Positions 4,376 through 47,378 are shown, numbered from the stretch's first letter. The stretch: 64,000 nt of DNA from Methanobacteriota archaeon (GCA_020696385.1 JAEHCQ010000001.1:193003-257002), one strand, 5' to 3'. Notes: generated by a model from the letters alone, not told the origin. Numbers and translations: made by a program.

Positions 4376-4476
4376 AATGTGCGAACTTATTTCGCACATT
4401 ATTTTACTTCAATTTTTTGAAGTTATGAATGTGCGAACTTGTTTCGCACATTATTTTACTTCGAATTATTCGAAGT
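4376..4476. repeat. Tandem duplication (52-bp period) of a composite site: palindrome A (AATGTGCGAA-n5-TTCGCACATT) plus palindrome B (ACTTCRAA-n3/4-TTYGAAGT) with an AT-rich TATA-like core between them. Likely operator/promoter of the regulator gene and/or terminator of the KaiC-like gene
   Basis: A1 at 4376-4400, B1 at 4406-4423, A2 at 4428-4452, B2 at 4458-4476. All arms are perfect inverted repeats read directly from the sequence. The site lies 24 bp upstream of the regulator ATG (4352) and overlaps the stop of the KaiC-like gene (4466). Confidence 0.7.
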
Positions 4477-13397: not shown

Positions 13398-14394
13398 ACA
13401 ATACATCGACTATCTTCTTCAGCGCAGCCAGTCCCTTTTCTTCCGCATCCCTGGCTATCTTGAGATCCTCAATCACCATAGCCCTTCTCTCGGGGTCCTG
13501 GAGCGTGGAAAGCTGGCGAGTGAGAAAAGGATACTGGTCCGATATGCAACTCAGGCTCTCCCTCACATCTGTGTAGTACTTGATGGCCTCATCGAACAAT
13601 TCACCATGCTGGCCAATCTTAGATTTTGCCTCATACAGGAAATCAACAGCGAACCTCCTGCACTCGGACCACACCTCTGCATTGTAGCCAATTCCATGAG
13701 CGTGTCCTTCAGTATATTCGATCGAGCCATCCAAGAATTTTATCCACATGTCATAGGCCTTGAGGCCAGATGCATAGCCAGGATAGACAAAGCCCTCGGG
13801 GTTGGATGCGAAGAATAAGGCTTTCTCAAAAGCTTCTTTCACGACCTTCTCAGGAGACGCTGGCTCACCAGGGTGAACTGCAACGAACTCTATTAGGCCT
13901 ATCTCGTGCTTGTCCATCTCCTGCCACGGCACAGGCCCCTTTCCGTTCGGAGCCAAGCATCCGTTGTAGTAATAGCCGACATCATCATATCCGTTGACAC
14001 AGTAATATTCGGGGATCTCCATCTCCCAGCCATAGACAGGTATGTTGGCATCCAGCTTCCTTTGGGTGAATTCCCAGGCGGCCTTTGCCGCTTCTTTCCA
14101 TTCGGTGCAACCGCCCTCTTCTTCCCTGAATGAAAGAATGCCATCTGTCTTATAACCTAAATTGGGAGCCAGCTCAAAGAGCATGATGGCCTTCCAGGCT
14201 GTCGGGCCACTGGGACACAATTCCTCATGAATATTCATAACAAATGCATGGCCAGTCCCACCAAATATCCAGGGTAGGCTGATGCCCAGATCAAGATAAT
14301 CCGTACATCCCTTGATACATCCGATATGGGTCGTCCACAAACTATGCCACTTGAAACCTTCTAATTCCTTCATCTCTTTCACCAATAACATCAT
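13396..14394 (-). CDS. Hypothetical protein (332 aa), no confident family assignment
   Basis: Long ORF with a convincing coding look and a bounded intergenic context. N-terminal Cys cluster (HIGCIKGCTDY). Function not recognised. Confidence 0.6.
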   Translation of the reverse strand: MMLLVKEMKELEGFKWHSLWTTHIGCIKGCTDYLDLGISLPWIFGGTGHAFVMNIHEELCPSGPTAWKAIMLFELAPNLGYKTDGILSFREEEGGCTEWKEAAKAAWEFTQRKLDANIPVYGWEMEIPEYYCVNGYDDVGYYYNGCLAPNGKGPVPWQEMDKHEIGLIEFVAVHPGEPASPEKVVKEAFEKALFFASNPEGFVYPGYASGLKAYDMWIKFLDGSIEYTEGHAHGIGYNAEVWSECRRFAVDFLYEAKSKIGQHGELFDEAIKYYTDVRESLSCISDQYPFLTRQLSTLQDPERRAMVIEDLKIARDAEEKGLAALKKIVDVL

Positions 14395-14501
14395 TGATTC
14401 GAGAGTATAAATAGTTAAAGAGAAGGGGGGTGAAAGTATTGTGGAATCAATATCTTTTTAGGTATTGATATCATTTCATTGCATTATAGGATCGGTAAAA
14501 T

Positions 14502-14720
14502 ATGGACAAGATACTTACCCGGATGATATGGGCTGGCGCGTGGCTGGTATTCTTTATGATCGCTTTCATCTATTTGATAGCAATTGAAAATTATGAAGCT
14601 GGCACTGTTATTTTCGGAATTCTAATGGTATGCACTATTGGAGAAATTCTATTGTACAAAGAATTCCAAAAGGAAGATGATGAAGAAGAGGTCCTTCTGA
14701 TAGACAGGGGTATGAATTAG
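14502..14720 (+). CDS. Small two-TM membrane protein (hypothetical)
   Basis: 72 aa with two hydrophobic helices and an acidic tail. Sits in an otherwise empty spacer upstream of the DUF255 gene. Confidence 0.35.
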   Translation: MDKILTRMIWAGAWLVFFMIAFIYLIAIENYEAGTVIFGILMVCTIGEILLYKEFQKEDDEEEVLLIDRGMN

Positions 14721-14757
14721 GAGAAACTTAGATTAACCTCAATGTAGATGAAGTATC

Positions 14758-16572
14758 ATGGTTTTTGATATTTCACGGAACGCACTTGATGAAGCTCTTT
14801 CTCCATATTTACGTCAACACTCGGACAATCCAATTAATTGGCAGGAGTGGACTCAGGAAGCCGTTGACCATGCAAAAGCTACCAACAAACCCCTTCTTGT
14901 ATCCGTTGGATATTCAACCTGCCATTGGTGCCATGTGATGGCCAGGGAGGCTTTTTCCGACAAAACTATTGCTGATTTTCTAAATTCGAATTTCGTGCCT
15001 ATCAAGGTTGACAGGGAAGAGAGGCCTGATATTGACTCCACAATGATGAGCTATTGTGTGAAAATTAATGGTTCAGGTGGCTGGCCACTTAATGTATTCC
15101 TTACTCCAAATCTGATACCTATGCACGCAATGACCTATGGTCCTATTGAGCCAAAATATGGAATGCCTGGCTTTTTATATATATTGCATAGGATCAAATC
15201 ACACTACGAACAAAATGATTCTCCAACAAACCCACCGATAATTGAATTTGAGGAACCGAAAAGTACAGAAGAATCATCCATTGCCAGACAATTAAAGGCC
15301 AGCTACGATAAAGAATATGGGGGTTTTGGCCAAGCAAACAAATTCCCATCACACTCATCGAATTTGTTCATGCTCTATTATCTTGAGGTTAATCCAAATC
15401 AAGACCTGGAAAAAATGCTGGTAAAAAATCTGGACACAATGTTTTTATCTGGTTTGCATGACCACATCCAGGGTGGATTTTATAGATACACTGTGGACAG
15501 AAAATGGCAGATCCCACATTTTGAGAAGATGCTCTATGACCAGGCTATGCACTTATGGGTATATTCAATGGCTTATGGTAAATTTAAGAATGAGAATTAC
15601 AAAATGGTGGTTGAAAACCTATATAGAAGCCTGGAAGAAACCTTCTCAATCAATGGGTTGTATTCATCAGCACTGGATGCCGACACAGATCATGAAGAGG
15701 GATTGACCTATGTGATGTCATATTCTGAATTGGAGAATTCCCTGACTACTGATGAAATGGATTTAATGGCTGAAGTATACGAGATTTCAGAGATGGGTAA
15801 TTTTGAAGGAAAAATTCATCTGATCCGAAAAACATCTGAGAAGCTGCCAGGCTTGATTGACCTTAACCAAAAGCTTCTGGACCTTAGGCATAAAAAACCT
15901 CAGCCTTTCAGAGATGAAAAAACACTCGTTTCATGGAATTCCCTTGCTGGCATTGGCCTCATTCACTCTTTTAGATATCTGGGAGATAAAAAGTATCTTA
16001 ATAGGGCACTATTGATACTTGATACAATACTCGATAAGCATTTTTCAGAAGATAAATTATGGAGGAGTTATTATGAAGGAAAAGTTCATGGTGGACAGTA
16101 TCTCCATGACCATGCTTCATTCCTGCTATTTCTAACTTATTTGTATGAAGAATATCAATATCCTAAAGACTCAAATTATTCAAAATTCAGGGGTTTGTTA
16201 GAAAATTCTATTGCATCAATTGAGCAATTCAGGATCGAAAAAAATGATGGATGGCTTGAATCCAATTCAACAGATTTTCATCAAGTTCCAGCTCAGTCTT
16301 TCGACCATCCTATACCATCCTCTGTGTCATTGGCTCGATTTTCGCTGGCCAGAGCTAATGCACTTCTGGACTTGGATTATTTGACTGATACTGAATTTGC
16401 ATCTGCCCATAATTATGATTTTTACAATGTGGCCTCGATGTTTGAGAGAGGATTATTCCATATAATCACAAATCCCAAACAATTAACCTGGAAAGAACTG
16501 CCTATGAATTCAATCCAGAAATTGGGTAAGTCTACAAGTGATTGCTATAAGGGTAGTTGCAGACCCATTTGA
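14758..16572 (+). CDS. Thioredoxin-domain protein of the DUF255/YyaL family (thioredoxin-like N-domain fused to an alpha/alpha-toroid N-acylglucosamine-2-epimerase-like domain)
   Basis: N-terminal NWQEW...KPLLVSVGYSTCHWCHVMAREAF with the CxxC motif. The 604-aa length is typical of this family. Confidence 0.85.
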   Translation: MVFDISRNALDEALSPYLRQHSDNPINWQEWTQEAVDHAKATNKPLLVSVGYSTCHWCHVMAREAFSDKTIADFLNSNFVPIKVDREERPDIDSTMMSYCVKINGSGGWPLNVFLTPNLIPMHAMTYGPIEPKYGMPGFLYILHRIKSHYEQNDSPTNPPIIEFEEPKSTEESSIARQLKASYDKEYGGFGQANKFPSHSSNLFMLYYLEVNPNQDLEKMLVKNLDTMFLSGLHDHIQGGFYRYTVDRKWQIPHFEKMLYDQAMHLWVYSMAYGKFKNENYKMVVENLYRSLEETFSINGLYSSALDADTDHEEGLTYVMSYSELENSLTTDEMDLMAEVYEISEMGNFEGKIHLIRKTSEKLPGLIDLNQKLLDLRHKKPQPFRDEKTLVSWNSLAGIGLIHSFRYLGDKKYLNRALLILDTILDKHFSEDKLWRSYYEGKVHGGQYLHDHASFLLFLTYLYEEYQYPKDSNYSKFRGLLENSIASIEQFRIEKNDGWLESNSTDFHQVPAQSFDHPIPSSVSLARFSLARANALLDLDYLTDTEFASAHNYDFYNVASMFERGLFHIITNPKQLTWKELPMNSIQKLGKSTSDCYKGSCRPI

Positions 16573-17644: not shown

Positions 17645-19333
17645 CTATAGCTTGGATTCCACAACAGCCAGCACTTCCTTCAGCAGAGCATCTCCCTCCG
17701 CTGCCAGATCGTCGCATTTCTTCAGCATATCCACCTTGTAAACCTCATCGGTGACTTCCGGCATATTGATCTTCACATTGAGTATCGCACCGTGCATACC
17801 GGCATTGGCCATTAGAGCTCCGACACCAACATCACTTGCACTGGCCGCCAGGCCCTTTGGTGCTAACTGTTTGGCCAGTCTCAGGACATCCAGGCACTTC
17901 GCAGCCACGCTATATGGCACATCGATAGCTCCCTTGTATGCTTCCAGAATGGCGGCTTTCTTCGCAACCTCTTCCTCCGGAGTGCTGGCCTTGATCTTAT
18001 TGGCCTCGACCACGCCATTGAAAGCGTTCGTGTCCGCATCCACTCCGTTAACGAGGAATGCCTTCAATGATTCGCCAGTTTCTCCTATCTGGCAAATTTC
18101 CGGATAGATCTCCAGGAAATCCTTTCCACCGCTCAAATTGGACACCATTGCCACAAGCCCTGCCCCCAATGCTCCACCAAGAGACGCGACACTGCCGCCA
18201 CCAGGTGCCATGGAATCGGTCTGGACCTCGTCCACGAAGTCAGTGACTGTCATATCCACCAGACCGCATTTCTCGGCCAGGACATAATCGATAACTCTTT
18301 CTTCAAGTGGGAAGGGTGAGATATCTGCCAGACCCATGGAGAAAGCGGCGATCTCAACAAGCTCGCGCTCGGGCAGACCAGTTGGCTTTCCCATCTTCTT
18401 CAGATAATGCTTTCCAGCAGCCACCATCGCGGCCTTTGGAACAAGCCCTACTATTTCCGAGCCAGTGACCTGAAGACCACGGTCGAGAGCGGCCTTGACC
18501 ACGAAGTCATAAACGTCGTGGACCGCTGTCTCTTTGTAATTTGTAAGATTTATGGATATCTGAGCTCTGCCATATTCCGGAATATACCAACCGATGGCCT
18601 TGCAAAACTTGAAAGCACCGGGAATGGTGGTCTTTTTGCCATTCTCGTCCTTGATGATATCGCCATCTCTCTTGTACTTGGTAGGCGACGGAGTTCGGGC
18701 CACCCTGCCCTTTTCTCTGATATCGCTCGCGATATCAAAGGCCAGCTTCTTATCCTTGGTATTAAGATTGATATTGTAGGCGATTAAGAACTCACGCGCG
18801 CTCATGGCTGTGGCTCCGCACTTTGGCTTGAACTCTTTCGGGCCAAAATCAGGTGTGTATTCCGGTGTCTGGAACTTCCTTTCAAGGGCCTCATACTCGC
18901 CCTCACGCACCTTGGCCAGGTTTCTCCATTCCGGCCTGGTCGCACTCTCCTCATACAGGAATATCGGAATGCCCAGTTCGTCTCCAACGCGCTTTCCAAC
19001 TTTCTTGGAAATTTCAACACAATCAGCCATCGTCACTCCACTCACAGGAATGAATGGGCATACGTCTGTCGCGCCCATTCTTGGATGCGCGCCAGTATGC
19101 TGGCTCATGTCAATTAGTTCAGACGCTTTCTTTATGGCCAAGAAAGCGGATTCCTGCACGCTTTCCGGGTTTCCGAAGAAAGTTACCACGGTTCTATTGG
19201 TGTCAGCTCCCATATCGACATCCACGACCTGGCTGCCCTCGACCGAGTTGATCTCAGCTACTATCTGGTCTAAAATTCCTTTGTCTCGCCCCTCACTGAA
19301 GTTCGGTACACATTCCACTATCTTCTGCATCAA
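17645..19333 (-). CDS. ftcD: Glutamate formimidoyltransferase / formimidoyltetrahydrofolate cyclodeaminase (bifunctional FTCD-like)
   Basis: N-terminal formiminotransferase domain signature (ECVPNFSEGR, PRMGATDVCPFIP) and a C-terminal cyclodeaminase-like helical domain. 562 aa. Confidence 0.85.
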   Translation of the reverse strand: MMQKIVECVPNFSEGRDKGILDQIVAEINSVEGSQVVDVDMGADTNRTVVTFFGNPESVQESAFLAIKKASELIDMSQHTGAHPRMGATDVCPFIPVSGVTMADCVEISKKVGKRVGDELGIPIFLYEESATRPEWRNLAKVREGEYEALERKFQTPEYTPDFGPKEFKPKCGATAMSAREFLIAYNINLNTKDKKLAFDIASDIREKGRVARTPSPTKYKRDGDIIKDENGKKTTIPGAFKFCKAIGWYIPEYGRAQISINLTNYKETAVHDVYDFVVKAALDRGLQVTGSEIVGLVPKAAMVAAGKHYLKKMGKPTGLPERELVEIAAFSMGLADISPFPLEERVIDYVLAEKCGLVDMTVTDFVDEVQTDSMAPGGGSVASLGGALGAGLVAMVSNLSGGKDFLEIYPEICQIGETGESLKAFLVNGVDADTNAFNGVVEANKIKASTPEEEVAKKAAILEAYKGAIDVPYSVAAKCLDVLRLAKQLAPKGLAASASDVGVGALMANAGMHGAILNVKINMPEVTDEVYKVDMLKKCDDLAAEGDALLKEVLAVVESKL

Positions 19334-19676
19334 ATCACCTTGAAATCCGGTAATCGAATTATCGATATAAGCCTATCGCGAGATATGAGCTTTAAGGAAT
19401 AATATATAAGAGTAGGCGGTTGCCATGAGCCCATCAATGAATAAGCAACTAAACGCAGAGCAATTATCTCTGCGAGGTTGGGCTAATGGCCTATGAAGAT
19501 GAACTTTCAGGCCAGTGTTTGATTTTATACTAATTTATAGCCTAATAGTTCAGACAAAACTAATATATACACAACCTGTATTGGGCGAATGCTCAGAATG
19601 AGCCGATGAATAATGATCCGCTAACAGCCAGACATTATAAAAGGTCGTGGTTCAAGGTGGTGAATGAGGTGAAATA

Positions 19677-21080: not shown

Positions 21081-21105
21081 TATTCATAACCAAGACAAAC
21101 TAAAA

Positions 21106-21133
21106 AGACCGAACTGAGCAATCGGTTCGGTCT
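21106..21133. terminator. Hairpin (agaccgaac/gttcggtct) plus T-rich tract between convergent ndk and mptE
   Basis: Perfect 9-bp inverted repeat with an 8-nt loop followed by ttcatctttatatta. Confidence 0.4.
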
Positions 21134-21145
21134 TTCATCTTTATA

Positions 21146-21790
21146 TTATATATCAATTAACAAGCTTATAAGCTTTTTAGCCCACGCCAGCTTCTTCTTC
21201 TTGACCCCTGGGTCTTTTCCAGGCTTGGGTATCGGGTTATCAAAATCAAAGCCCAGAAGCCGAATATTTCTGGCATTGAAATGTGATGCCAGGAACACTC
21301 CTCTATCGCCATCCGTGAAACCACCATAATTTTGAATTACACCATGTGGACGGTTCTGGGTGGTCCCCATTATCCGGCCTGTGAATTTTGGTAGCCAGAG
21401 CCGCAGGGCATCCATATTATCGCCGTGAGCATGAATAACGGCGATAGAGCCACAGGAATTTGCATTGATCTGCTCCTCCACATCCCCGTCCAGATCGGTC
21501 ATGATTATTCCAGGAAGAATGTCATGATGCAGTAATTGGCTGACTGCGCCTTCAGCCGCGATGATGATAGCCCCGTCCTCAAGGCTGTCCATATCTTCTG
21601 GTTTCAATGCACCTCCGATGACGATAACAGGGTTGCCAGATATTATATTTTTCAAGATATCTGGATCTATGGTATCCATGCCACTGATCAGGGAAGCAAG
21701 AAGATCGGACGATGAGGCATCCGCGCCCTCATCGTATTGAAAATCATGGAGTATCTCTTTATAAAGTCCATGCCAGTCGTCGAAGTTCAA
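21146..21790 (-). CDS. mptE: 6-hydroxymethyl-7,8-dihydropterin pyrophosphokinase, archaeal MptE-like (DUF115)
   Basis: 214 aa with VIVIGGA...AVIHAHGDNMDAL and RLLGFDFD motifs reminiscent of the DUF115/MptE family. Confidence 0.6.
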   Translation of the reverse strand: MNFDDWHGLYKEILHDFQYDEGADASSSDLLASLISGMDTIDPDILKNIISGNPVIVIGGALKPEDMDSLEDGAIIIAAEGAVSQLLHHDILPGIIMTDLDGDVEEQINANSCGSIAVIHAHGDNMDALRLWLPKFTGRIMGTTQNRPHGVIQNYGGFTDGDRGVFLASHFNARNIRLLGFDFDNPIPKPGKDPGVKKKKLAWAKKLISLLIDI

Positions 21791-21805: not shown

Positions 21806-24800
21806 TTATTTCTTTTCAACGGTTATCTCACACTCGGAAGACCCATCTGCCATGGTCTTCCTGAGCTTGATATCTATTTCAGATTTCGAACGCTGAGCGA
21901 ATTTACTGGCAATGCCCCTGCATAGAATACAAAGGATCAAATTCCTTGTTTCCTGATTGTTCCACGGACATCCAATGACCTTCGTAAGGCATGAATCTTC
22001 ACTGACACAATCCAGATATGATTCACCTCCAAGATCTTCCAGAACCCGAATATAAGCCCTTCCGATATCCTTAGCAGTATCCTCACCAATGCCATCATAA
22101 TACCTCTTATCCAGTACACCTTCCAATTTATCAGATAGATTCTCGATGAACTGAACACGGTCCGTACTGCCCATTGAATCAAGGAATATGGGGACCAGGT
22201 CCGTGAGCACGGACTTCATCTCGAACTGAGCCTCGAGAATACGTTGCTTGACATCCTCTTCCTGTCGTCGTTTTTCTTCGGTCATATCCCTGACAATTGT
22301 GACAATACTGACAACCTGGCCGCCTTCCATTAGCGGGATCTTCCGGGTTTGGGTCGTGTACACCTTTCCATCAATATCAATATCTTCTGAAGTCTCAATT
22401 ATTTGACCGTCCTCGAAGACCTTTTTATATTCAGCCATAACACTTTCCGATAGGAATGGGAATATGTCAGTGACATGTTTGCCAACGGCGTCTGTGCAAT
22501 TGAGGCTCAGCTCACTGCACCATTCTTGGAATGACTCATTGAAGATGGTTATTATCATATTCCTGTCAACGACATGGATGGAATCACTGATGGAATTAAC
22601 AGTGGATCGATATTGTGCTTCGGAGGTCCTTCTCTGATTTTCAGCCTGTTTCCTTTCAGTAATGTCCCTGACAAAGCCCACGGTGTAAAATTCATCTTTG
22701 ATCTTGTATTCGTGGATCGAGACCTCGGCATCAAAGGTCGAGCCATCATTCTTACGAACTGCCTTGAACTCGTAGTATGTTGGAGCAAATTTGCCGGCCG
22801 TCCTCTGGACATGGTACTCGCTCACCATAATGGCGGATTCGGGTGACATGAAATCACTGGGCTTCTTCCCAATAAGCTCCGACAGATCAGTACAGCCAAA
22901 GAGCTCGACCAATCTCGGATTCGCATAGATGAACCTTTCGTCCTTCTCTATACCTATGCCATCAGTGGAGGCATGGAAAAAGGCATCCAGTTGATTCTGG
23001 AAGGCAAATCGCTCTTCCTCTGCCTTTCTTTTTTCGGTTATGTCCCTCACATACTCTATGACACCAGTTAGCTCACCAGTATCTACATCGTGCATGGGGA
23101 AACTGTGCAATTCCAACCAGCCTATATGGGCATTGTCCTGGCCTATCTTTCTTATCACTCTTAATTCGGATTCATCTAAGGCCAGAACATCACGACTTGG
23201 GCATTTGCATTCCCCATCCGGGCTATCACATTGAAGGAGATCATTGCATGTTTTTCCTTCAAAGGGCATCTTGTGAGGGAACCATTTCTCGATCGTCTTA
23301 TTGGTGCTGACTATCTTCAGATCTGTATCCATGACTATGAGGCCGTCCTGTATACTTTCGAATATATTGGCCAGGAATCTCTCGCCATCTCTAAGGGCTC
23401 TTTCAGACCTCTTCCGCTGAGTTATGTCCCTGACGACCGAGATAAAACCACTGGGCTTATTGTTCAGCATGTAGGGTGACAACTTGGCCGAAAACCACAG
23501 ATCGATTTTTTCAGTCTTTAAAGGATATTCGAATTCATATATATCTCCATTCTTAGTCTTCTCAAATCCAATATCGATTTGCTCGGATATCATTGGTGGC
23601 AGAACATCAGAATATTTCCGACCTAAAAAGTCCTCTGGCTTGGCTATTAATTTAGTATTTTCTGGGGAATGGTAGAATATAAAAACGCCTTCAGAATCCA
23701 CACCGAAAACAAGGTCATCCATGGATGAGAATATCCCTCTTATCTTCTCATGTGATTCCTGAATAGCCTTCTCGGACTTCTTCCTATCTGTGATGTCTCT
23801 GGCAATGGCACAATTGTATTCTTTATCCTTATACCGAATGTAATTATTAGTGACCTCGACCGAGAACTCAGCGCCATCCTTTGTCTTGTACACAGACTCA
23901 TATAAGGATGATCGGACATTCTTCAATCCATCCCAATGGCCCTTCCAATGATCGGCCCATCTATCCTTTGGGAAGTGTAGATCTATGTCGGCCACGGACA
24001 TTCCAAGGAGCTCTGACCTAGTATAACCCAAACTCTCACAGGCTGCATTGTTCACATAGAAGAAATTGGCGTCAGAATCCATCCAGAAGGTCGCATCGGA
24101 CATACGTTCTATGGCAAATTGGGTGATGAGAGGAGCTTCTTCAGCCTTCTTCCTCTCGGTGATATCCGTGTCAAGACCTCTGTAACCCACCAGATCATTA
24201 TTCTTATCCAATATCGGAGTTCCACTTGTTTCCAGGAATACCACATGTCCTTCCTTGTGGAGGTTTGTGTTTTCGAATTTGATGATATGCTCTTTCCTTT
24301 CAAAGGCTGATATGGCAGCCTGTTTCATCTCATCTCTGGCATCCAATGTGAAAAAATCATAGAAATGTTTCTTGCCCACCACTTCTTCAGGCTTGTAACC
24401 AAGTATCCTTTCGATGGCTGGGCTAGCATAGGTGTACAGGCCATTCGCATCCACTTCCCATATCCACTCGCCTGCACTTTCAGCCACCTGCCTGAAGCGC
24501 TCCTCGCTCTCAATAAGGCTATCTTCTGCTTTTTTCTTCTCGGAAATATCCCGAACAATATGGACAAAATTGGTTGTGGGGCCTGAGTCATTAATCACCG
24601 GTTCAACTGAAACATGGAACCATCTGCCCCCTTCCTCGAATTCCATTGTCTCTCTCTTACCAGATAACTTGCTTTTCGCTAATGGACAATCATCAGGAGG
24701 TGCGCCCTTGTGAACGATCTCATTGCATACCTTTCCTATGATCTCTTCACGAGGCAGACCAAGAATGTACTCGGAAGCTTGATTAGATTGGATGATCAGG

Positions 24801-26827
24801 CTACTCTCTGAATCGATTAAAGACACCCAGTCAGACATTGAATTGAAGGTTGTCTCCCACTCCAGGGTCTTTTTCATGATCTCCTCCTCGGCCTTCTTTC
24901 GCTCACTTATATCGGTGATGACACCAAGTATTGCTGGCTGTCCCAGATAGCTAATGAGTTTTGTGGAATTTATCACATCGAATTCATTGCCTTCCTTGTC
25001 CAAAATCACACACTCATATATCTGGACCTCAACGCCCTGCATATGATTTTTTAACTTATCGCCGACTATTTCTTTATATTCTGCAGATATCAGGCCCATA
25101 AAGTCAAAGTCTGGATCGTAAAATTCATCCTTGGTGTAGCCCATGACCCTTTCACATTCTGGATTGACATATATCACCTTGCCCCCTTGATTGATGAATA
25201 TCATGTTTGGAGATTGCTCGGCCAGGTCTCTGAACTTTTCTTCACTCTCGACCAATGCTTTCTCGGTCTTCTTCCTCTGTGTAAGGTCCCTGATGAAAGC
25301 AAGATCGGCTGGCTTTCCTTCAAAATTTATGATGCCAGCATTGATCTCAACAGGCACCACATCTCCATTATTCCTCAAAAGGGTGATCTCATAGATGCTT
25401 GGGAGATCCTCTCCGGCCATCCGCCTCTTGTAAAAATCAAGTATTTGACCTCTTATTTCAGGAGGTATAAGATTGGTGAATTCATTATCAAGTATCTCAT
25501 GTTTTTCTAATCCAGTTATCTGTAATATCTTATCATTTAGATATTTGACAAGTCCATCCTGGATGATGACTATCCCATCATTAGCCCTCTCTATGAGATG
25601 TCGATATTTCTCCTCGGATTCCGTGAGGTCCTTGTAAGTTTCTTCGACCATCTCCTCGAGATGACCCCTGTGCCTTTCAAGCTCATTTTCGATCCTCTTC
25701 TTCTCTGTAAGATCCCTTACTGTCGCCTGTAATACAAGCTTACCTTTCAGCTCAAAAGCAGTCAACCACACTTCGGCTGGAAAATCTTCACCCGATTTTC
25801 TGCGGTGTACCCACTCGAACCTATTATGGCCCCATTGATAAGCCGCTGCAATTTTTTCATTAGCGGCCTTCTGTGAATCTTGATCATCAGGCTGGTAAGG
25901 TGGAGATAATTGAGATGGTCTAACACCAATGAACTCGTCCTTTTTATCAAGGCCGAACATATAAAGAGTGGCTTCATTGCAATCAATGAATCCAGTATCA
26001 TCAAGGAGCATCACGGCATCTGCTGAGGATTCGAATAGAGTTCGGTATTGTTCCTCGCTCTCACGGATCATATTGGTAGCTTCCAGTATATCTGTTATAT
26101 CATTTGAGACACCCAATACATGCTCACTGCCTCTCCAGTTCATCAAAGAATATGTGATATGGAGATGTCTGTACACTTCGTCATACCTCTTTATCCGGGC
26201 AGTGAAGTCCGCCTTACCCTTTTCATACATCACCTGTAATGCGGCCAGGCCGATACCGGCATCCTCAGGATGCACATTGGAACCAGCACGTTTACCGATC
26301 CATTCCTTGGGATCATGGCCCATCATACGACCAGATGCGGCATTTATGTAAACATATTCAAAATCATCATTCAGGACAAAGATACCCTCTTCAGTGTTTC
26401 CCAATATCATGTCCAGGAACTCGGCTGTATCCTCGAGTTCTGTTTCCATCTCGTGCTTGTAGAGAGCGATCTCGATAGATACTTGAAGCTCCCGCGGCTC
26501 GAAAGGTTTGATTATATAGGCATAAGGCTCAGTTATCATTGCCCTTTTTAGCGTGGCCTCATCACTGAAGGCTGTGAGAAATATTACAGGGATATGATAC
26601 TCGGCCTTGATCTGATTCGCGGCCTCGATGCCATCCATCTCGCCCTCAAGCTGAATATCCATGAGAACAAGATCTGGCATGTGCTCTTTCACTAGTTCGA
26701 TGGCCTTTTCTCCAGAAGCTGCAATACCTGGAACCTCGTATCCGAGAACCTCCAATCGCTTCCTCAGATCATGAGAGACAATGCTTTTGTCTTCCACGAT
26801 GATTATCCTTTTCTTGGCCTTGTCCAT
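21806..26827 (-). CDS. Response-regulator receiver domain fused to an array of about 12 PAS/PAC domains, with a Cys-rich C-terminal domain (no kinase, HTH or cyclase output)
   Basis: N-terminal REC (KRIIIVEDKS...DLVLMDIQLEGEMDG...PVIFLTAFSD) followed by repeated PAS modules each ending in ...DITERKKAEE-like linkers. The C-terminus is ...CVSEDSCLTKVIGCPWNNQETRNLILCILCRG. The start is placed at ATG 26827 (GGGGG RBS, 5 nt after the HK stop). The track start 26854 would overlap the HK by 23 nt and has no RBS. Confidence 0.85.
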   Translation of the reverse strand: MDKAKKRIIIVEDKSIVSHDLRKRLEVLGYEVPGIAASGEKAIELVKEHMPDLVLMDIQLEGEMDGIEAANQIKAEYHIPVIFLTAFSDEATLKRAMITEPYAYIIKPFEPRELQVSIEIALYKHEMETELEDTAEFLDMILGNTEEGIFVLNDDFEYVYINAASGRMMGHDPKEWIGKRAGSNVHPEDAGIGLAALQVMYEKGKADFTARIKRYDEVYRHLHITYSLMNWRGSEHVLGVSNDITDILEATNMIRESEEQYRTLFESSADAVMLLDDTGFIDCNEATLYMFGLDKKDEFIGVRPSQLSPPYQPDDQDSQKAANEKIAAAYQWGHNRFEWVHRRKSGEDFPAEVWLTAFELKGKLVLQATVRDLTEKKRIENELERHRGHLEEMVEETYKDLTESEEKYRHLIERANDGIVIIQDGLVKYLNDKILQITGLEKHEILDNEFTNLIPPEIRGQILDFYKRRMAGEDLPSIYEITLLRNNGDVVPVEINAGIINFEGKPADLAFIRDLTQRKKTEKALVESEEKFRDLAEQSPNMIFINQGGKVIYVNPECERVMGYTKDEFYDPDFDFMGLISAEYKEIVGDKLKNHMQGVEVQIYECVILDKEGNEFDVINSTKLISYLGQPAILGVITDISERKKAEEEIMKKTLEWETTFNSMSDWVSLIDSESSLIIQSNQASEYILGLPREEIIGKVCNEIVHKGAPPDDCPLAKSKLSGKRETMEFEEGGRWFHVSVEPVINDSGPTTNFVHIVRDISEKKKAEDSLIESEERFRQVAESAGEWIWEVDANGLYTYASPAIERILGYKPEEVVGKKHFYDFFTLDARDEMKQAAISAFERKEHIIKFENTNLHKEGHVVFLETSGTPILDKNNDLVGYRGLDTDITERKKAEEAPLITQFAIERMSDATFWMDSDANFFYVNNAACESLGYTRSELLGMSVADIDLHFPKDRWADHWKGHWDGLKNVRSSLYESVYKTKDGAEFSVEVTNNYIRYKDKEYNCAIARDITDRKKSEKAIQESHEKIRGIFSSMDDLVFGVDSEGVFIFYHSPENTKLIAKPEDFLGRKYSDVLPPMISEQIDIGFEKTKNGDIYEFEYPLKTEKIDLWFSAKLSPYMLNNKPSGFISVVRDITQRKRSERALRDGERFLANIFESIQDGLIVMDTDLKIVSTNKTIEKWFPHKMPFEGKTCNDLLQCDSPDGECKCPSRDVLALDESELRVIRKIGQDNAHIGWLELHSFPMHDVDTGELTGVIEYVRDITEKRKAEEERFAFQNQLDAFFHASTDGIGIEKDERFIYANPRLVELFGCTDLSELIGKKPSDFMSPESAIMVSEYHVQRTAGKFAPTYYEFKAVRKNDGSTFDAEVSIHEYKIKDEFYTVGFVRDITERKQAENQRRTSEAQYRSTVNSISDSIHVVDRNMIITIFNESFQEWCSELSLNCTDAVGKHVTDIFPFLSESVMAEYKKVFEDGQIIETSEDIDIDGKVYTTQTRKIPLMEGGQVVSIVTIVRDMTEEKRRQEEDVKQRILEAQFEMKSVLTDLVPIFLDSMGSTDRVQFIENLSDKLEGVLDKRYYDGIGEDTAKDIGRAYIRVLEDLGGESYLDCVSEDSCLTKVIGCPWNNQETRNLILCILCRGIASKFAQRSKSEIDIKLRKTMADGSSECEITVEKK

Positions 26828-26831
26828 ATGC

Positions 26832-28109
26832 CTAAAGCCCCCTATCCCGAACATATGGCAGGGTGATAATAAACTTTGTTCCTTCCTTGCTTATCAGCCT
26901 TACATGACCCTTCATCTCGCAAACCAGTGTATCCACAAGCTGAAGACCAAGAGATTCCAGATTGTGAATATCCAGAGATTTGGGAATTCCAATTCCATTA
27001 TCTGATACTATTAGGATCATAGAATTCTTTTCATCATCCACTTTCATGGATATAAGAATAATACCATTTGATCTTCCATCAAAAGCATATTTCATACTAT
27101 TGGATACAAGTTCATTGATCACAAGGCCACATGATATCGCAGTATCGACATCCAATACGATATCGTCGATATCCAATTTCAATTCGACCGAACCGGGATT
27201 GATAAGGTATGAAAGCGCCATGTGATTGACCAGAACCTTCAGATATTCGTCAAAATCAATATGGGAGATGTCAGAGGTCATGTAGAGCTTTTCATGTATC
27301 AGAGCCATGGATTTCACACGGTTCTGGGTGTCCATGAGCATTTTGTGGGTGTTTTCATCACCATGCTGAGTGGATTGTAAGCTTAAAAGACTGGAGATTA
27401 TCTGAAGATTGTTCTTCACTCTATGGTGGATCTCTCTGAGAAGTATCTCTTTCTCATTAAGTGTTTTTTTGGTCTCATTAATAGCCTTGACCCTCGCCCT
27501 GTTGCTCTTATTAAGTTCATTAACATGTTTTCTCAATCCTCTTGATATTATGGACGTAAGTATGGCTAGGATAAGCAGGGAAGCAACCAGTGCTGAAAAA
27601 TTGTAGGTGGCCATCTCTGATATATTTTGATGTTTTATCTGATTGGAGGCCATAAAGTGATTGAAGACATAGGCGTAGGAAATTATACTCAAAGATGCAA
27701 AAAATATGGAGCTCTTGGAACCCACCAATAATCCTGCTGTAACGACCACAATAGCATATATCATAATAATAGTGAATGAAAGACCTCTGTTCATCAAGCC
27801 AAATGTAGTTCCTATTATCATGACGATAAGGAAAATATAGATACCCAGGTTATAATATCCTTTCCTGACAAGCAGGTAAGATGCGAGGGTCGTAAAAAGT
27901 ACAAGGCAAGTATTTGAGCTTGAGTATCCGAACTCTGTTTCATCAGGATCATCGATCAGGCTGTGTGTCATCAAAATGATGCTCACGATAACAAGAAGGA
28001 TCATGAAAGCAATAACCATGATCATGAAGTATCTGGCCTGCTGTGCCTTGTACGGATCCTTTATAGGGGATTGTACCAATTTTTCAAAGATGGATCTCAT
28101 TGTTCTCAA
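26832..28109 (-). CDS. Membrane-bound sensor histidine kinase (multi-TM N-domain, HisKA_2-type H-box, HATPase_c)
   Basis: About 6 predicted TM helices, then the H-box [20 protein letters not shown] and ATPase motifs ([20 protein letters not shown]). An AGGGAG RBS lies upstream. It begins 15 nt after the KaiC stop. Confidence 0.85.
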
Positions 28110-28124
28110 GTGAATTGCTCCCTA

Positions 28125-29594
28125 TTAATCGAAGAACTTCTCCACCCTGTCGGTTATGGATTTTCTTGGAGAGCCAGACAGAACGCCTTCCATTCCCACG
28201 AACTTATCCTCGATAACTATTCCCTTTGAGGTGATCTCATATTCCTTGATCTCCTGCTTGTGCTTCGCACCTCTCAATTTCAGGATATTCATGGCCTTCT
28301 TCATTTCCGAGCCTATCTCCACATACCTCAGCATGATTATGCCGTCGACGATGTTCGATGCTCCCTGATTGGAGAGGGTGGTGATACCCATTAGCTCATC
28401 GGTCTCGACGGTCATCAAAGATGTGATATTATGATTTTTAAAAAGAATCACAAGATTGTTCAGGAAGTTCTTGAGACCAGATTCCTGACATACGATATCA
28501 TAATCAGATATCGTATCAATGACCACCCTTTCAACTCCCTCCAGGGATCTGGCGACCTCCTGTCCATGCTTATTCGGGTCCAGTTGGCTGGGGATATTGT
28601 ATAATATCTTAACAAGACCTTGTTTCTCATATCCTTCCAGATCGATCCCGAATCCTGCAGCATTCCGCTTCAACTCCATCGGATTCTCTTCAAATCCGAT
28701 GTATATCGACTTTTTACCATTCTTAGCGGCCTCGTCTATGAACTGAAAGGCCATGGTGGTTTTACCAGTTCCAGCACTTCCACTGACAAGGATAGCGTCC
28801 CCTTTAAAGAAGCCGCCATCGGTCATATTGTTCAAGCCCGAAATACCTGTACTTATCCTGGTATCTGTCTTGGGGATATCCATGCCTGGCTTCAGGATAG
28901 GGAATACTCTGGCCCCATCATCCGTTATCTCACAGGAATGCTTACCCGAGATGAAGTCACTGCCTCTCATCTTCAGAACTTCCACATATCGCCTTCCGCT
29001 GACATGTGTTATCCTGATTATGGCATCCGTGACGAATTCCTCAACACCCAGGCGCGATAATCTATCCTGATCATTTATCTCGGTCGTGATTATTGTCGTG
29101 ATATGCAATGCCTTGAGCTTTGCCACTATTCTGAAGAGAGCGTTTCTGAACTCCGTACTCTTCTCATACAGCAGACCGAAAGAAGCGATACCATCCAGCA
29201 CAAGTCGCTGGATGCCTTTCTCTTTCACCCAAGTCTCTATTATTTCCAAAATTATTTCAACATTCAGCACGCTGGATGCGATATCATCCTTATCCGCATC
29301 AGGGGATGATAATTGCCTTATAGTGGAAAGGTCAAGGAACCATACCTTGTCCTCGTTCTGATCAAGGGTCTTTTTCAACCCAGGTGGCAGAGAGTTGATG
29401 ATATTCGACCTACCCTCCTCCATGGTTATGAACAAACCCTTTTCTCCTGTCTCGGCCGCATTGTTCACTAAGAATTGAGAGGCTAAAATGGTCTTCCCCG
29501 CGCCTCCACATCCACTAAGCAGAACAATGGAATTTTCCACCAAACCCCCATTGGTGACCTCGTCCAATCCATCTATTCCTGTTCTTATCTTCAT
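28125..29594 (-). CDS. KaiC-like double-domain RecA-superfamily ATPase
   Basis: Two tandem KaiC modules, each with GIDGLD/GISGLN and Walker A (GCGGAGKT, GSAGTGKT). 489 aa. The start ATG overlaps the upstream RHH gene's stop (ATGA). Confidence 0.85.
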   Translation of the reverse strand: MKIRTGIDGLDEVTNGGLVENSIVLLSGCGGAGKTILASQFLVNNAAETGEKGLFITMEEGRSNIINSLPPGLKKTLDQNEDKVWFLDLSTIRQLSSPDADKDDIASSVLNVEIILEIIETWVKEKGIQRLVLDGIASFGLLYEKSTEFRNALFRIVAKLKALHITTIITTEINDQDRLSRLGVEEFVTDAIIRITHVSGRRYVEVLKMRGSDFISGKHSCEITDDGARVFPILKPGMDIPKTDTRISTGISGLNNMTDGGFFKGDAILVSGSAGTGKTTMAFQFIDEAAKNGKKSIYIGFEENPMELKRNAAGFGIDLEGYEKQGLVKILYNIPSQLDPNKHGQEVARSLEGVERVVIDTISDYDIVCQESGLKNFLNNLVILFKNHNITSLMTVETDELMGITTLSNQGASNIVDGIIMLRYVEIGSEMKKAMNILKLRGAKHKQEIKEYEITSKGIVIEDKFVGMEGVLSGSPRKSITDRVEKFFD

Positions 29595-30034
29595 ACTTCA
29601 CTACCCCCGACTGGTTCCTCATTATTCTCCTGGATTATCCTACTGGCAATACTCTCTGCCATTGTAGGTCCAAAAGTTGATGAAAGTATCTTCTTCACAC
29701 CCTTCATGAATCCATCTGGATCTGTCTTTGGATCGACCCTTTTCAAAAGAATCTCCAGCTCATGTTCCAGATCCTTTGCCAGGCCTTCTCCGACAGCATC
29801 CTCGATGATGGACTCCACCCTCTCAGGAAGTGTATTGATATTGGCCTTTGCCACCATTTCCCTCTCGAAGACAGTTTCAATTCGTCTTCGGGTGGCATCT
29901 CTTATGAAATCATTGGGTGTGCTGTAGGCAAGCTCTGGATGACGCTCAATAAGCTCTTCGACCTGATGCATCATGGCCTTTGAAATCCTCACCCCGACCC
30001 ATTTCCTTTCATCTTTTTTTTCTTCGGAAACCAT
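29591..30034 (-). CDS. Ribbon-helix-helix (CopG-like) domain protein, first gene of the KaiC/HK operon
   Basis: RHH-like N-terminus (WVGVRISKAMMHQVEELIERHPELAYSTPNDFIRDATRRRIE). 4-nt overlap with the kaiC-like start. A 250-bp AT-rich divergent promoter region lies upstream. Confidence 0.55.
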   Translation of the reverse strand: MVSEEKKDERKWVGVRISKAMMHQVEELIERHPELAYSTPNDFIRDATRRRIETVFEREMVAKANINTLPERVESIIEDAVGEGLAKDLEHELEILLKRVDPKTDPDGFMKGVKKILSSTFGPTMAESIASRIIQENNEEPVGGSEV

Positions 30035-30284
30035 TCGTTTTGATTATATGCCTTTGAATACTAATATATTTCCGTATATATGAAAAGGATGAAAAATATA
30101 ATCTATTTAGTCACATAATAAAAAATGTCAAACTAAACATTTATATAATTTTCGGTTATTATAATATTTATCTCCAATAGCCAGCTATTAGAATATAGAT
30201 CCTATAATTTATTAATAGAAATACAAATAAAGAAATAGAAACTAATATATACCTATAATTAAATATAAGCGGTGGTGTATTAAA

Positions 30285-45869: not shown

Positions 45870-46277
45870 TTAACACAAAACAATTCTAACTCGTTTTTGT
45901 GATTCATGTGCATTCTTACAGACAATGATAAGCTCATTTAAAATTGATTTGAGGTCATCAACATCTTTTTTCTGAAGCAAATATCCTTCCAAAGGCATAC
46001 TAATCATATCTTCTCCTTCATTGTTCATTGCTGACAATAATGAAGAAAAGGTTTCCATCAAGGATAATGGAGATTGCCATGCTTCAGCACCTTCGCTACC
46101 ATCAGTTGCTAAATGGAATGATTCCAAATCAAACTCGTAAACTTCTGAAAGATAATTAGTTGTTGAATCAGAATCATAGGTAAGATCAAAATATAACTTT
46201 GCAAATAATCTTGAATCTTTTGGTGGCCAGTCATCCGGTTCCATCCCTTCAACTTGTAATGTCGCATCTATTCCCAT
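45870..46277 (-). CDS. Hypothetical acidic protein (135 aa), second gene of the low-GC cassette
   Basis: ORF in AT-rich DNA overlapping the upstream gene by 10 nt. No recognised motif. Confidence 0.5.
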   Translation of the reverse strand: MGIDATLQVEGMEPDDWPPKDSRLFAKLYFDLTYDSDSTTNYLSEVYEFDLESFHLATDGSEGAEAWQSPLSLMETFSSLLSAMNNEGEDMISMPLEGYLLQKKDVDDLKSILNELIIVCKNAHESQKRVRIVLC

Positions 46278-47245: not shown

Positions 47246-47378
47246 TCATTAATCCTCCCTCCTTCCTTTTAGTTGAATCTGATTACTTAAATCTTTGCAC
47301 CCCCTAACTGGTCATTATTTTCCAGTTATATTATATACTCAAACTCACATTTTCTACAAAACAGAGGGAGAATACATT

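Follow-up and report, generated by a model that had tools for sequence, protein, structure and literature searches.

A KaiC-family ATPase with a constant small partner and a varying third gene in a Thermoplasmata/Methanomassiliicoccales-type archaeon

How KaiC proteins outside the cyanobacteria, in a setting without KaiB, pass information on is an open question, and the locus described here bears on it. KaiC-like ATPases have been proposed as archaeal signal-transduction hubs, including Methanosarcinaceae KaiC-REC fusions (Makarova, Galperin & Koonin 2017, mBio 8:e01959-17, as cited in PMC5847659), and archaeal signalling has been discussed as native KaiC machinery mixed with imported bacterial two-component parts (PMC5847659). 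The hub idea is largely bioinformatic, although work has been done on single-domain members such as ArlH and, by genetics, on CirA. In the window analysed here (the whole stretch of DNA, 64 kb), nucleotides 21806-30034 carry on the minus strand 4 co-oriented ORFs, in the order small KaiC-coupled protein (SP), KaiC, histidine kinase (HK) and response regulator (Table 1). The initial annotation had placed 4 minus-strand genes here; all of the ORFs are present where it put them, its gene calls and domain identities were upheld, and the profile searches that it called for returned matches to KaiC, HisKA_2, HATPase_c, Response_reg and PAS families.

Table 1. Coordinates of the features of the locus, counted from the first nucleotide of the window
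Feature	Nucleotides	Strand	Basis
SP, 147 aa; N-terminal ~55 aa probable RHH, C-terminal ~90 aa helical, family-specific	29591..30034	-	
KaiC-family two-domain ATPase, probable autokinase, 489 aa	28125..29594	-	PF06745 x2; PDB chain alignment
Membrane HK, 425 aa (TTG 28109) or 422 aa (ATG 28100)	26832..28109	-	Pfam HisKA_2, HATPase_c; hydropathy, motif scan
Response regulator, 1673 aa; REC + 11 PAS + MetOD1	21806..26827	-	Response_reg, PAS families, MetOD1
REC, residues 8-118	26474-26806	-	Response_reg 82.9 bits, E 2.3e-23
11 PAS domains, residues 135-1517	22277-26425	-	TIGR00229, 11 stretches; Pfam PAS families
MetOD1, residues 1518-1673	21809-22276	-	PF18546 65.1 bits vs cut-off 23.8, E 9.3e-18, residues 1540-1669
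Intergenic region, AT-rich, divergent	30035..30284		Sequence; alignment of 7 orthologous regions
MreA-family transcriptional regulator, 122 aa	30285..30653	+	NF053756 117.5 bits vs cut-off 100, full-length
MptE-like (6-hydroxymethylpterin diphosphokinase-like)	21146..21790	-	PF01973 1.1e-20
14-bp-stem hairpin between convergent NDK (+) and MptE-like (-) genes	21104..21135		Terminator-like scan, consensus match only

The junction sequences bear out the tight coupling claimed for the 4 genes. The SP stop TGA and the KaiC ATG share ATGA at 29591-29594, which is the overlap that had been described. The 15-nt gap given for KaiC and HK is correct from the KaiC stop (28125-28127) to the TTG at 28109, but it becomes 24 nt if the HK start is the ATG at 28100, the one chosen by public gene callers. 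The HK stop TAG (26832-26834) lies 4 nt, rather than 5 nt, before the response-regulator ATG at 26827; an alternative ATG upstream, at 26854, would give a 23-nt overlap with HK. Orthologous loci keep these spacings, with 3-4 nt between HK and REC, found in 3 lineages, and with SP and KaiC sharing ATGA or lying adjacent. The 250-bp AT-rich region annotated as a shared divergent promoter lies between the SP and MreA genes. It contains a BRE/TATA-like box, GGAAATATATTAGTATTC (~30056-30073, minus strand), whose centre is ~31 nt upstream of the SP ATG, implying a leaderless or very short-leader transcript. A GAAA-N-TATA box was observed at an equal distance upstream of the SP gene in non-syntenic loci also. 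A motif count gave 3 vs 0.09 expected, and no operator repeats besides the core promoter were identified. Alignment of the 7 orthologous intergenic regions showed the MreA-proximal 80 nt (~30205-30284) to be almost invariant.

The divergent gene, previously described as a small wHTH regulator, is a regulator gene of the MreA family by its NCBIfam match (NF053756). Its product is 87-99% identical among syntenic loci (tblastn/blastp), and it adjoins the module in the clade of the window and, at 41% identity, in the branch of loci L007 and L020; it was not found next to the module in L013 or in the branches with a membrane-protein third gene. At the other end, a fifth same-strand gene, MptE-like, starts 15 nt past the response-regulator stop and is probably co-transcribed with the module, and the hairpin listed in Table 1 is likely where the transcription unit of the minus strand ends. 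In L006 and L009, though not in L013, the MptE-like gene comes after the response regulator; it is a housekeeping gene that adjoins the locus by synteny and is no conserved component of the module.

The KaiC of the locus was detected by PF06745 in 2 stretches (E 1.8e-93, 312.6 bits vs a cut-off of 26.6), and its residues 2-483 align end to end with cyanobacterial KaiC (PDB chains, E ~1e-83 to 1e-86). The initial annotation had entertained a RecA-like ATPase lacking the KaiC autokinase residues. We observed instead that the catalytic residues are kept, as is a serine equivalent to S431 of Synechococcus elongatus KaiC. CI (~residues 1-233; Walker A G28-T35, E59/E60) and CII (~residues 245-489; Walker A G272-T279, E302/E303) retain the Walker A and Walker B motifs and both EE pairs; the Walker A motifs and EE pairs of both domains are conserved across the clade, the ANME-2 outgroup being without the CI EE pair. 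S413 (codon 28356-28358) aligns with S431 and is an invariant serine across the clade, N414 aligns with T432 (N, H, Y, F or V in relatives) and S408 with T426; the S431/T432 pair thereby keeps a single possible phospho-acceptor. Judged by its residues, the protein is catalytically complete, and ATPase and autokinase activities are probable.

The locus resembles the cyanobacterial KaiABC system with SasA/CikA-RpaA in the end-to-end alignment of KaiC, in its Walker A motifs and EE pairs, two of each, in the arginine fingers and in the serine equivalent to S431, and an HK and a receiver protein are likewise encoded beside KaiC. It differs in that no KaiB-like ORF was detected in the 64-kb window (phmmer, approximate KaiB query), the KaiA-binding C-terminal tail is absent and the T432 position is Asn. 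Also, the full-length matches to the NCBIfam circadian KaiC equivalogs fall under their cut-offs (NF006799, 382.8 vs 408; TIGR02655, 315.4 vs 546.25). The C-terminal tail that is present, ending in SGSPRKSITDRVEKFFD, is conserved, and the protein ends ~12 residues past the SGSP motif.

HK has ~5-6 TM helices in residues 1-195 by hydropathy, with no known sensor domain and no Pfam domain in this N-terminal portion. The kinase core follows, matched by HisKA_2 (98.9 bits, E 1.7e-28; H-box EIHHRVKN, with H229 at codon 27423-27425) and HATPase_c (46.7 bits, E 5e-12; N box and G1 box DNGIG). The TM helices and the core alone make up the protein; Pfam and motif scans detected neither a KaiB-like nor a PAS domain, nor any other domain for docking in the cytoplasm. 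The REC domain of the response regulator has its acidic pocket at E12-D13, with D57, T85 and K107, and every catalytic and acceptor residue of the kinase and of the receiver is in place. The response regulator had been described as a protein of some 1.67 thousand residues with a receiver, about 12 PAS domains and no classical output domain. The size and the receiver stand, the PAS count is 11, and the C-terminus is MetOD1 (PF18546), which is a catalogued output domain; a winged-helix or other DNA-binding output domain was not found with Pfam or NCBIfam. The 6 cysteines of MetOD1 (C1607, C1613, C1620, C1633, C1636 and C1666) are invariant in 6 orthologues, and per-domain comparison with orthologues placed the conserved core of the protein in PAS10 (residues 1266-1391) and MetOD1. 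PAS9 carries a Cys-rich insert (23201-23248). REC-PAS-MetOD1 is a catalogued architecture of archaeal response regulators (Galperin et al. 2018, PMC5847659; eg M. acetivorans MA2445), in which the function of MetOD1 is not known (PMC5847659; bioRxiv 10.1101/2024.10.04.616672). The protein described here shares that architecture and the conserved Cys cluster, but differs in having 11 PAS domains, in belonging to a Thermoplasmata/Methanomassiliicoccales-type host where the others were reported from Methanobacteria/Methanomicrobia, in being encoded inside a KaiC operon, and in having REC-less PAS-MetOD1 orthologues.

SP had been labelled an RHH protein. No HMM detects such a domain directly, although homology can be reached through intermediate sequences, and on this basis the N-terminal ~55 aa are a probable ribbon-helix-helix DNA-binding domain. 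On the negative side, 19 family members gave no RHH family in Pfam at E<=1, SP had no match in NCBIfam, 2 PDB profile searches returned no RHH chains, hhalign against an approximate RHH panel gave P 0.07, and whole-chain fold searches were non-specific. On the positive side, the N-terminal region, which reads KWVGVRISK-helix-HPELAYSTPNDF-IRDATRRRIE, has stand-alone relatives of 45-92 aa (E 6e-7 to 1e-3), 7 of 25 of which match RHH_1 (best 3e-5) and 2 RHH_8, and the joint profile matches the RHH domain of NikR in register (E 0.007). An AF2 model of the monomer is extended at 11-18 and helical at 19-31 and 40-67, and its N-terminal domain has pLDDT 88-94. SP is like NikR and the RHH antitoxins (HicB3, MazE6, ParD) in its N-terminal strand-helix-helix and in having a C-terminal extension, which in SP could tie a putative DNA-binding activity to a partner; it differs from them in that this extension is a four-helix domain without detectable relative, and in that the proposed partner is a KaiC hexamer and not a metal or a toxin. 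The family is very small (17 clusters in a set of 5.8e9 proteins and 9 full-length representatives in one of 1.84e9), is not covered by a model in the copies of Pfam and NCBIfam that were searched, and has no genomic context other than KaiC.

We compared 24 related loci from ~9 distinct flanking neighbourhoods, a small sample consisting entirely of MAG or metagenome contigs of one class, several of them cut. In every one, SP directly precedes KaiC, often with overlapping stop and start; the SP copies range from 94% to a relative recognised by profile only (E 2e-18). The constant partner of KaiC is SP, not HK. The third gene varies. It is HK followed by REC-PAS-MetOD1 in the window and in L002-L004, L006 and L009, and PAS-MetOD1 with neither HK nor REC in L005 and the non-syntenic L013, where it begins 14-25 nt past KaiC. 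L007 has PAS domains, cut by the contig end; L010, L011/12/21 and L016-18 have an unannotated 517-aa multi-TM protein with no Pfam match; and L022 has a Vut_1/VUPS membrane sensor-like protein. In L024 the gene is unrelated and has, by eye, the look of a class II aminoacyl-tRNA synthetase; the third genes of L022 and L024 may merely be unrelated neighbours. The four-gene order thus recurs in relatives, the initial annotation having left its conservation to be checked. Most of its occurrences, however, lie inside one syntenic block (RpiA-MreA ... MptE-NDK-L24e-S28e-L7Ae), so that by itself this conservation is weak evidence of functional linkage. In a simple NJ tree of KaiC, the loci with HK and REC form one clade (bootstrap 95), which also holds L005 with neither, and the sister of this clade carries PAS-MetOD1 only; HK and REC are always present or absent together among the loci, and from this placement they come and go together. 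This joint presence and the 3-4-nt spacing in 3 lineages lend indirect support to the two being cognate. Parsimony on the tree suggests that both were gained jointly on an older KaiC/PAS-MetOD1 pairing and jointly lost once, the node that splits gain from loss scenarios resting on L005 alone.

From these observations we favour, with moderate confidence, a KaiC signalling module of the Thermoplasmata/Methanomassiliicoccales lineage that has an RHH-KaiC core switch and interchangeable sensors, and to which a His-Asp input was added in the present case. Like the rest of the mechanism, the contacts between the proteins, the way in which the signal runs and the binding of SP to DNA are inferences. 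The KaiC hexamer would change state through ATP hydrolysis and autophosphorylation of S413, and SP would read that state through its family-specific C-terminal helical domain, with altered DNA binding as the result. In this scheme the output to transcription would come from SP, which probably would also regulate its own gene from the promoter immediately before it; a transcription factor has been suggested as what the KaiC-like CirA of H. volcanii may modulate (PMC13286277). The gene after KaiC would be the interchangeable input, in this branch ancestrally a cytoplasmic PAS-array protein with the Cys-rich MetOD1 at its C-terminus, which most likely would touch KaiC via a PAS domain, as does the kinase neighbouring KaiC in P. 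putida (bioRxiv 10.1101/2022.01.26.477890). In the sub-lineage of the window, a membrane HisKA_2 kinase would have been inserted and a receiver fused to the PAS-MetOD1 protein, and a membrane or envelope signal passing from HK H229 to REC D57 would now modulate this partner of KaiC. Possibly, MetOD1 rather than SP could be the true output.

The initial annotation had proposed a linear KaiC-gated phosphorelay in which KaiC sets a SasA-like HK and the REC-PAS protein, as the RpaA-like acceptor, is the output. We regard this as unlikely, despite the tightly spaced KaiC-HK-REC order in 3 lineages, the complete kinase and receiver residues, and an independent KaiC...HK-REC cluster in ANME-2 archaea. 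A precedent is provided by the Pseudomonas KaiC-HK-RR modules (Terrettaz et al.; bioRxiv 10.1101/2022.01.26.477890; Environ Microbiol 2023), in which KaiC physically binds neighbouring kinases and the function is linked to stress or growth phase and is not circadian. The claim that no characterised system has this exact composition holds for the exact composition only; KaiC-HK-RR clusters with demonstrated KaiC-HK binding do exist. Those modules likewise have one or two phosphorylatable residues at S431/T432. They are bacterial, however, and their contact with KaiC runs via PAS domains located on the kinase, whereas here it is the response regulator that carries PAS domains and HK offers no PAS or other cytoplasmic dock; they have a receiver of one domain as response regulator, in contrast to a 1673-aa REC-11xPAS-MetOD1 protein; and they have no RHH-type partner, their recurrent extra gene being of the CsrA/RsmA family or an EPS sortase. 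From SasA-RpaA the locus departs in that HK is without the KaiB-like N-terminal (thioredoxin-fold) domain of SasA and the acceptor without the OmpR-type DNA-binding domain of RpaA, or any DNA-binding output. Furthermore, HK and REC are missing from L005 and L013, which keep SP-KaiC-PAS-MetOD1, and from the membrane-protein branches, so KaiC works without the kinase in close relatives. The phosphorelay also leaves the invariant SP unexplained, and as an organising logic the SasA/RpaA analogy does not hold.

Alternatively, a self-contained SP-KaiC pair and an ordinary sensor system may lie side by side, sharing inherited synteny and a transcript only. This arrangement, which we consider quite improbable, would account for the concentration of four-gene cases in one syntenic block, for the equally tight appending of the unrelated housekeeping MptE-like gene, and for the occurrence of SP-KaiC with quite different or no sensor neighbours; also, MetOD1 response regulators in Methanosarcina can be orphans (bioRxiv 10.1101/2024.10.04.616672). 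Against it, the close PAS-MetOD1 spacing is kept in L005 and outside the syntenic block in L013, the slot after KaiC holds sensor-type proteins (PAS arrays, multi-TM, VUPS-like) with a consistency far above chance, and KaiC-PAS binding has the experimental precedent cited above. That SP and KaiC form a toxin-antitoxin-like, defence or DNA-repair pair, of an antitoxin-type RHH protein with a RecA/RadA-superfamily ATPase, is very hard to credit: KaiC does belong to the RecA superfamily, but what it aligns with over its whole length is clock KaiC rather than RadA or DnaB, PADLOC gave no relevant match and merely weak P-loop-level ones, the locus is chromosomal, single-copy and syntenic amid housekeeping genes with no mobile-element signs, and its neighbours are sensors.

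We read the probable RHH-KaiC module as a lineage-specific variant of the theme of KaiC as an archaeal signalling hub, and not as a replica of the clock output of cyanobacteria. As in that theme, the genes beside the KaiC-family ATPase encode sensor and two-component proteins and a putative DNA-binding partner, and the mixing of native and imported parts discussed in PMC5847659 fits the locus exactly. The differences are that this KaiC is a full two-domain, clock-type protein and not a single-domain or inactivated one, that its fixed partner belongs to the very small SP family, and that REC is fused to PAS-MetOD1 and not to KaiC. Part of the module may already have been described among the neighbourhoods of Makarova et al. 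2017. We raise only tentatively, as a rather doubtful extension, that SP-KaiC is an undescribed minimal KaiC-to-DNA pair, in which a slow ATPase with S413 as timer or integrator would directly control an RHH factor, plug-in sensors (PAS-MetOD1, membrane proteins or the His-Asp branch) would set the state of KaiC, and the whole would be a KaiB-independent archaeal hourglass or integrator.

The locus is a compact case of a catalytically complete two-domain KaiC with one invariant small partner that resembles a transcription factor, and natural variants of the module differ only in the sensor attached, be it a PAS-MetOD1 protein, a membrane protein or an entire kinase-receiver branch. Should the favoured model fail, what is left is a KaiC homologue beside an ordinary, though very large, archaeal response regulator. 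If it holds, MetOD1 and REC-PAS-MetOD1 regulators would be extended to Methanomassiliicoccales-type archaea and MetOD1 would have its first functional context, bacterial-type two-component parts would be graftable onto a native archaeal KaiC circuit, and there would be a direct KaiC-to-DNA output. If the minimal KaiC-to-DNA reading is also true, an hourglass or integrator would be reconstitutable from 2 to 4 proteins.

The minus strand of the window carries four ORFs in a row, identified by ORF calling and listed with neighbouring features in the table below. They encode SP (a small KaiC-coupled protein), a two-domain KaiC, HK (a membrane HisKA_2 kinase) and RR (a receiver protein with a PAS array and a MetOD1 domain). 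The SP stop and KaiC start overlap as ATGA; 15 nt separate the KaiC stop from the TTG start of HK, or 24 nt if the ATG chosen by public gene callers is used; and 4 nt lie between the HK stop TAG and the receiver start ATG-GAC-AAG. Pfam and NCBIfam HMMs bore out the domain identities that the initial annotation had given to KaiC, HK, REC and the PAS protein.

Table. Features of the KaiC locus and other sites in the window
Feature	Position	Strand	Remarks
Single-domain KaiC-like gene	4466-5347	-	293 aa; PF06745 E 7.5e-35; 23 kb from operon
Low-GC stretch	14001-16000		0.406 (window ~0.46)
FTCD gene	17645-19333	-	
ATATATTAGT, third copy of promoter-like motif	19555-19568	-	
14-bp hairpin	21104-21135		between MptE-like gene and convergent NDK gene
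MptE-like gene	21146-21790	-	fifth on same strand; begins 15 nt past RR gene
RR (REC-PAS-MetOD1)	21806-26827	-	1673 aa; longest ORF from 26854
Cys-rich insert CNDLLQCDSPDGECKC in PAS9	23201-23248	-	RR residues 1194-1209
HK	26832-28109	-	425 aa; TTG start
KaiC	28125-29594	-	489 aa
KaiC C-terminus, VEKFF(D/G/K)	28128-28160	-	
SP	29591-30034	-	147 aa
Conserved ~80 nt beside MreA start	~30205-30284		
MreA-family gene (NF053756)			122 aa; divergent, upstream of SP across 250-bp AT-rich spacer
Low-GC stretch	46001-48000		0.365 (window ~0.46)

The host is a Thermoplasmata/Methanomassiliicoccales-type archaeon of a lineage known from MAGs only. A KaiC-only contig scan gave 4 loci; look-ups of exact proteins and a single metagenome scan supplied the others. 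We observed that SP adjoins KaiC in all 24 related loci fetched, which represent about 9 distinct flanking neighbourhoods. The four-gene order singled out by the initial annotation does recur, in close relatives (KaiC 80–97% identical), in L009 (86%) and in L006 (61%). In these loci, however, the block is syntenic on both sides (RpiA / divergent MreA / SP / KaiC / HK / REC-PAS-MetOD1 / MptE-like) and its recurrence is therefore little functional evidence by itself.

The gene that follows KaiC varies among the more distant loci. L005, with the same synteny (KaiC 62%), has SP-KaiC and then, after 25 nt, a 692-aa PAS5-MetOD1 protein, without HK and without a receiver; L013 (52%), with unrelated flanks, has SP-KaiC-PAS2-MetOD1, likewise without either; and in L007 (48%) the gene after SP-KaiC encodes a PAS protein without a receiver and runs off the contig end. 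In three further contexts (L010, L011/L012/L021 and L016-18; KaiC 44–45%) the next gene encodes Mem517, a membrane protein with no Pfam match, and in L022 it encodes a Vut_1/VUPS-type membrane protein. In L024/L025 a distant SP relative, P0143, overlaps a two-domain KaiC, and the next gene is, by eye, class II aminoacyl-tRNA synthetase-like. The Mem517 proteins (L010 9473-11023; L011 9470-11023; L017 7473-9038) have 516–521 aa and about 12–14 TM helices, start 2–3 nt past the KaiC stop and invariably follow SP-KaiC in one branch; they are candidates for a KaiC-coupled membrane sensor or transporter. No homology was found between the HK TM region and these 517-aa proteins (hhalign probability 0.1%).

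Neighbour-joining (NJ) analysis of KaiC with 100 bootstraps placed L005 in a single clade with the HK+REC loci (bootstrap 95), and the PAS-MetOD1-only clade came out as its sister (bootstrap 81); the Mem517 clade and the L022 branch lie outside both. The simplest history would be that an older SP-KaiC-PAS-MetOD1 unit gained HK and REC jointly, and that L005 later lost both jointly.

KaiC itself has two PF06745 domains (E 1.8e-93), and its residues 2–483 align with cyanobacterial KaiC structures (E 1e-83 to 1e-86). The protein has the Walker A motif and the EE pair in each domain, together with the Walker B Asp residues and the LK(M/L)RG arginine fingers. Residue mapping by the printed alignment to chain 8jon (numbering offset +4) placed S431, T432 and T426 at S413, N414 and S408, respectively, of the window KaiC. 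Within the orthologous clade there is no variation in Walker A, in either EE pair or at S413, and position 414 is N, H, Y, F or V. The protein scores under the NCBIfam clock-KaiC equivalog cut-offs, and an approximate KaiB query found no KaiB-like ORF within the 64-kb window. Given the retained motifs, the scores below these cut-offs and the lack of a KaiB-like ORF in the window, the protein is, judged by its sequence, a catalytically complete two-domain member of the KaiC family, but not one that can be classed as circadian.

The C-terminal VEKFF(D/G/K) is kept in all SP-linked KaiCs; the distant L024 KaiC ends in ..VQKFFK, and the ANME-2 outgroup KaiC has a comparable aromatic tail. This tail may be a partner-docking peptide. 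Multiple KaiC paralogues per genome are typical of archaea, and the single-domain KaiC-like gene indicates that this genome also has several. On the L007 contig, about 4.6 kb upstream of SP-KaiC, an 881-aa protein with KaiC domains (418-3063) shows weak-to-clear matches to MEDS, DUF7504 and TP_0179.

By Pfam and motif scan, HK consists of HisKA_2 and HATPase_c C-terminal to about 5–6 TM helices, with an H-box EIHHRVKN and with N and G1 boxes. RR is ordered Response_reg, 11 PAS, MetOD1 (Pfam, NCBIfam), the PAS count being that of 11 TIGR00229 stretches plus linker motifs, and its receiver residues D13, D57, T85 and K107 are present. The initial annotation had denied this protein a classical output domain. 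That was wrong, because RR carries MetOD1 (PF18546), which scores 65 bits where the cut-off is 23.8, as part of REC-PAS-MetOD1, an archaeal response-regulator architecture already catalogued (PMC5847659). MetOD1, which contains a conserved cluster of Cys residues, has been likened to the HNOB, V4R and ATC-hydrolase domains (PMC5847659; bioRxiv 10.1101/2024.10.04.616672); in our alignment, 6 Cys are invariant in 6 orthologues. A MetOD1 homologue search of a word-indexed protein database returned 1 protein.

Per-domain comparison showed the PAS array to be fluid between orthologues: only a PAS3-type domain, PAS10 (residues 1266–1391) and MetOD1 are common to all, PAS11 was found in the window RR alone, and window PAS6 is 72% identical to an L005 PAS domain. 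The L006 HK (L006 9532-11139) has a PAS domain between its TM region and HisKA_2, and because this domain is 56% identical to window PAS2, the comparison suggests that PAS modules have moved between the adjacent HK and RR genes. The Cys-rich insert in PAS9, comparable to one in the L007 PAS protein (C-x12-C-x2-C), is a possible metal or Fe-S site within a PAS domain.

Direct Pfam and NCBIfam searches assigned SP to no RHH family, and two PDB profile searches returned no RHH chains; the best matches were AP-1/AP-2 beta helical chains (spurious) in one and GCN5, AP-2 beta and Era (all weak) in the other. An hhalign comparison with a panel of approximate RHH sequences gave P 0.07. An initial AF2 model from 16 sequences was of poor quality (pLDDT 60.7); a Foldseek search with it gave nothing meaningful. 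All support for an RHH assignment came from searching 1.84e9 representatives exhaustively with a profile and re-scanning the intermediate sequences. The SP family comprises just 17 clusters (90% identity) in a set of 5.8e9 proteins. The search gave 9 full-length representatives (E 9e-43 to 4e-16 for the 8 newly returned) and about 25 stand-alone proteins of 45–92 aa that match SP residues 8–62 and share the pattern W-x-x-V-x-I-P-K ... HPELGY-x-S-x-x-DF-x-x-DA-x-RR. Pfam RHH_1 was matched by 7 of the 25 (best E 3e-5), and others matched RHH_8 or PSK_trans_fac. A joint profile of the short relatives matched the P. horikoshii NikR RHH domain in register (E 0.007), with non-significant matches (E 0.15–0.5) to HicB3, H. 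pylori NikR and MazE6. An RHH N-terminal domain followed by a novel helical C-terminal domain is thus a probable, not a proven, description of SP.

Comparison of upstream regions showed that every lineage has a BRE/TATA box some 31 nt ahead of the SP ATG, a spacing that implies an mRNA with a short leader or none. Three copies of the motif ATATATTAGTWTYC lie in the window, where 0.09 would be expected; we rejected it as a specific operator, since non-syntenic SP upstream regions identified its SP-proximal copy as the BRE/TATA box of the core promoter, near -31. The ATATATTAGT copy, in the spacer from which the FTCD gene and the plus-strand L7Ae/S28e/L24e/NDK cluster diverge, is probably another core promoter. 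A sigma-70 promoter scan was set aside because the host is archaeal. The divergent gene belongs to the MreA family (117.5 bits; cut-off 100). The roughly 80 nt beside its start are near-invariant in 7 loci, the adjoining proteins being only 60–95% identical, and contain TATTTCT/TATTTGT direct repeats and a GGTGGTG Shine-Dalgarno-like box; this segment may be an MreA leader or autoregulatory element.

We propose that SP and KaiC form the core, in which the nucleotide and S413-phosphorylation state of KaiC would control SP. As the sole component with a plausible DNA-binding domain, SP would be the output, probably acting on its own promoter first. The gene after KaiC would supply the input. In the window's branch this would be the PAS-MetOD1 protein, probably docking on KaiC via a PAS domain, with the PAS domains and six-Cys MetOD1 sensing redox state, a metal or a small ligand. 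In the window lineage HK would phosphorylate the receiver fused to PAS-MetOD1, adding a membrane or envelope input.

The initial annotation favored a linear relay from KaiC through HK to REC, in the manner of SasA/RpaA. Associations of this general kind have precedents. In Pseudomonas, KaiC binds a kinase, whose PAS domain alone suffices (bioRxiv 10.1101/2022.01.26.477890). The H. volcanii KaiC-like CirA is linked genetically to the transcription factor CsmR and a two-component system (PMC13286277, PMC13464002), and Galperin et al. list KaiC-REC fusions in Methanosarcinaceae and refer to the proposal that the KaiC superfamily is a signalling hub in archaea (PMC5847659). The next-closest KaiC group (36% identity), that of ANME-2, lies in a cluster of Robl_LC7, KaiC, a 108-aa protein, a Cache-HAMP-PAS HisKA kinase and a single-domain receiver (L014/L015 5627-10872), so that KaiC and two-component genes cluster independently elsewhere in archaea; its KaiC is two-domain like that of the window but has lost the CI EE pair. 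For the window, the linear relay is possible but less likely, because HK is without a cytoplasmic docking domain, close relatives do without HK and SP is left with no role. It is also conceivable that SP-KaiC and HK/RR are two systems merely side by side, but this is disfavoured by the way PAS-MetOD1 and other sensor-type proteins recur directly after KaiC in unrelated contexts. A defence-system reading was discarded, PADLOC having given weak P-loop matches only.

The locus is real, conserved and lineage-specific. Archaeal KaiC-family hubs, KaiC-HK-RR clusters, REC-PAS-MetOD1 response regulators and MreA were already known. Our literature search, with Makarova et al. 2017 outside the comparison, found no KaiC-RHH or KaiC-Methanomassiliicoccales link of this kind. 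As far as checked within that same scope, what is new is the SP family with its strict coupling to a KaiC of two domains; a third gene that is exchanged as a module; the gain of HK and REC together and their loss together, as the KaiC tree suggests; and the presence of MetOD1 within a KaiC operon and within the window lineage.
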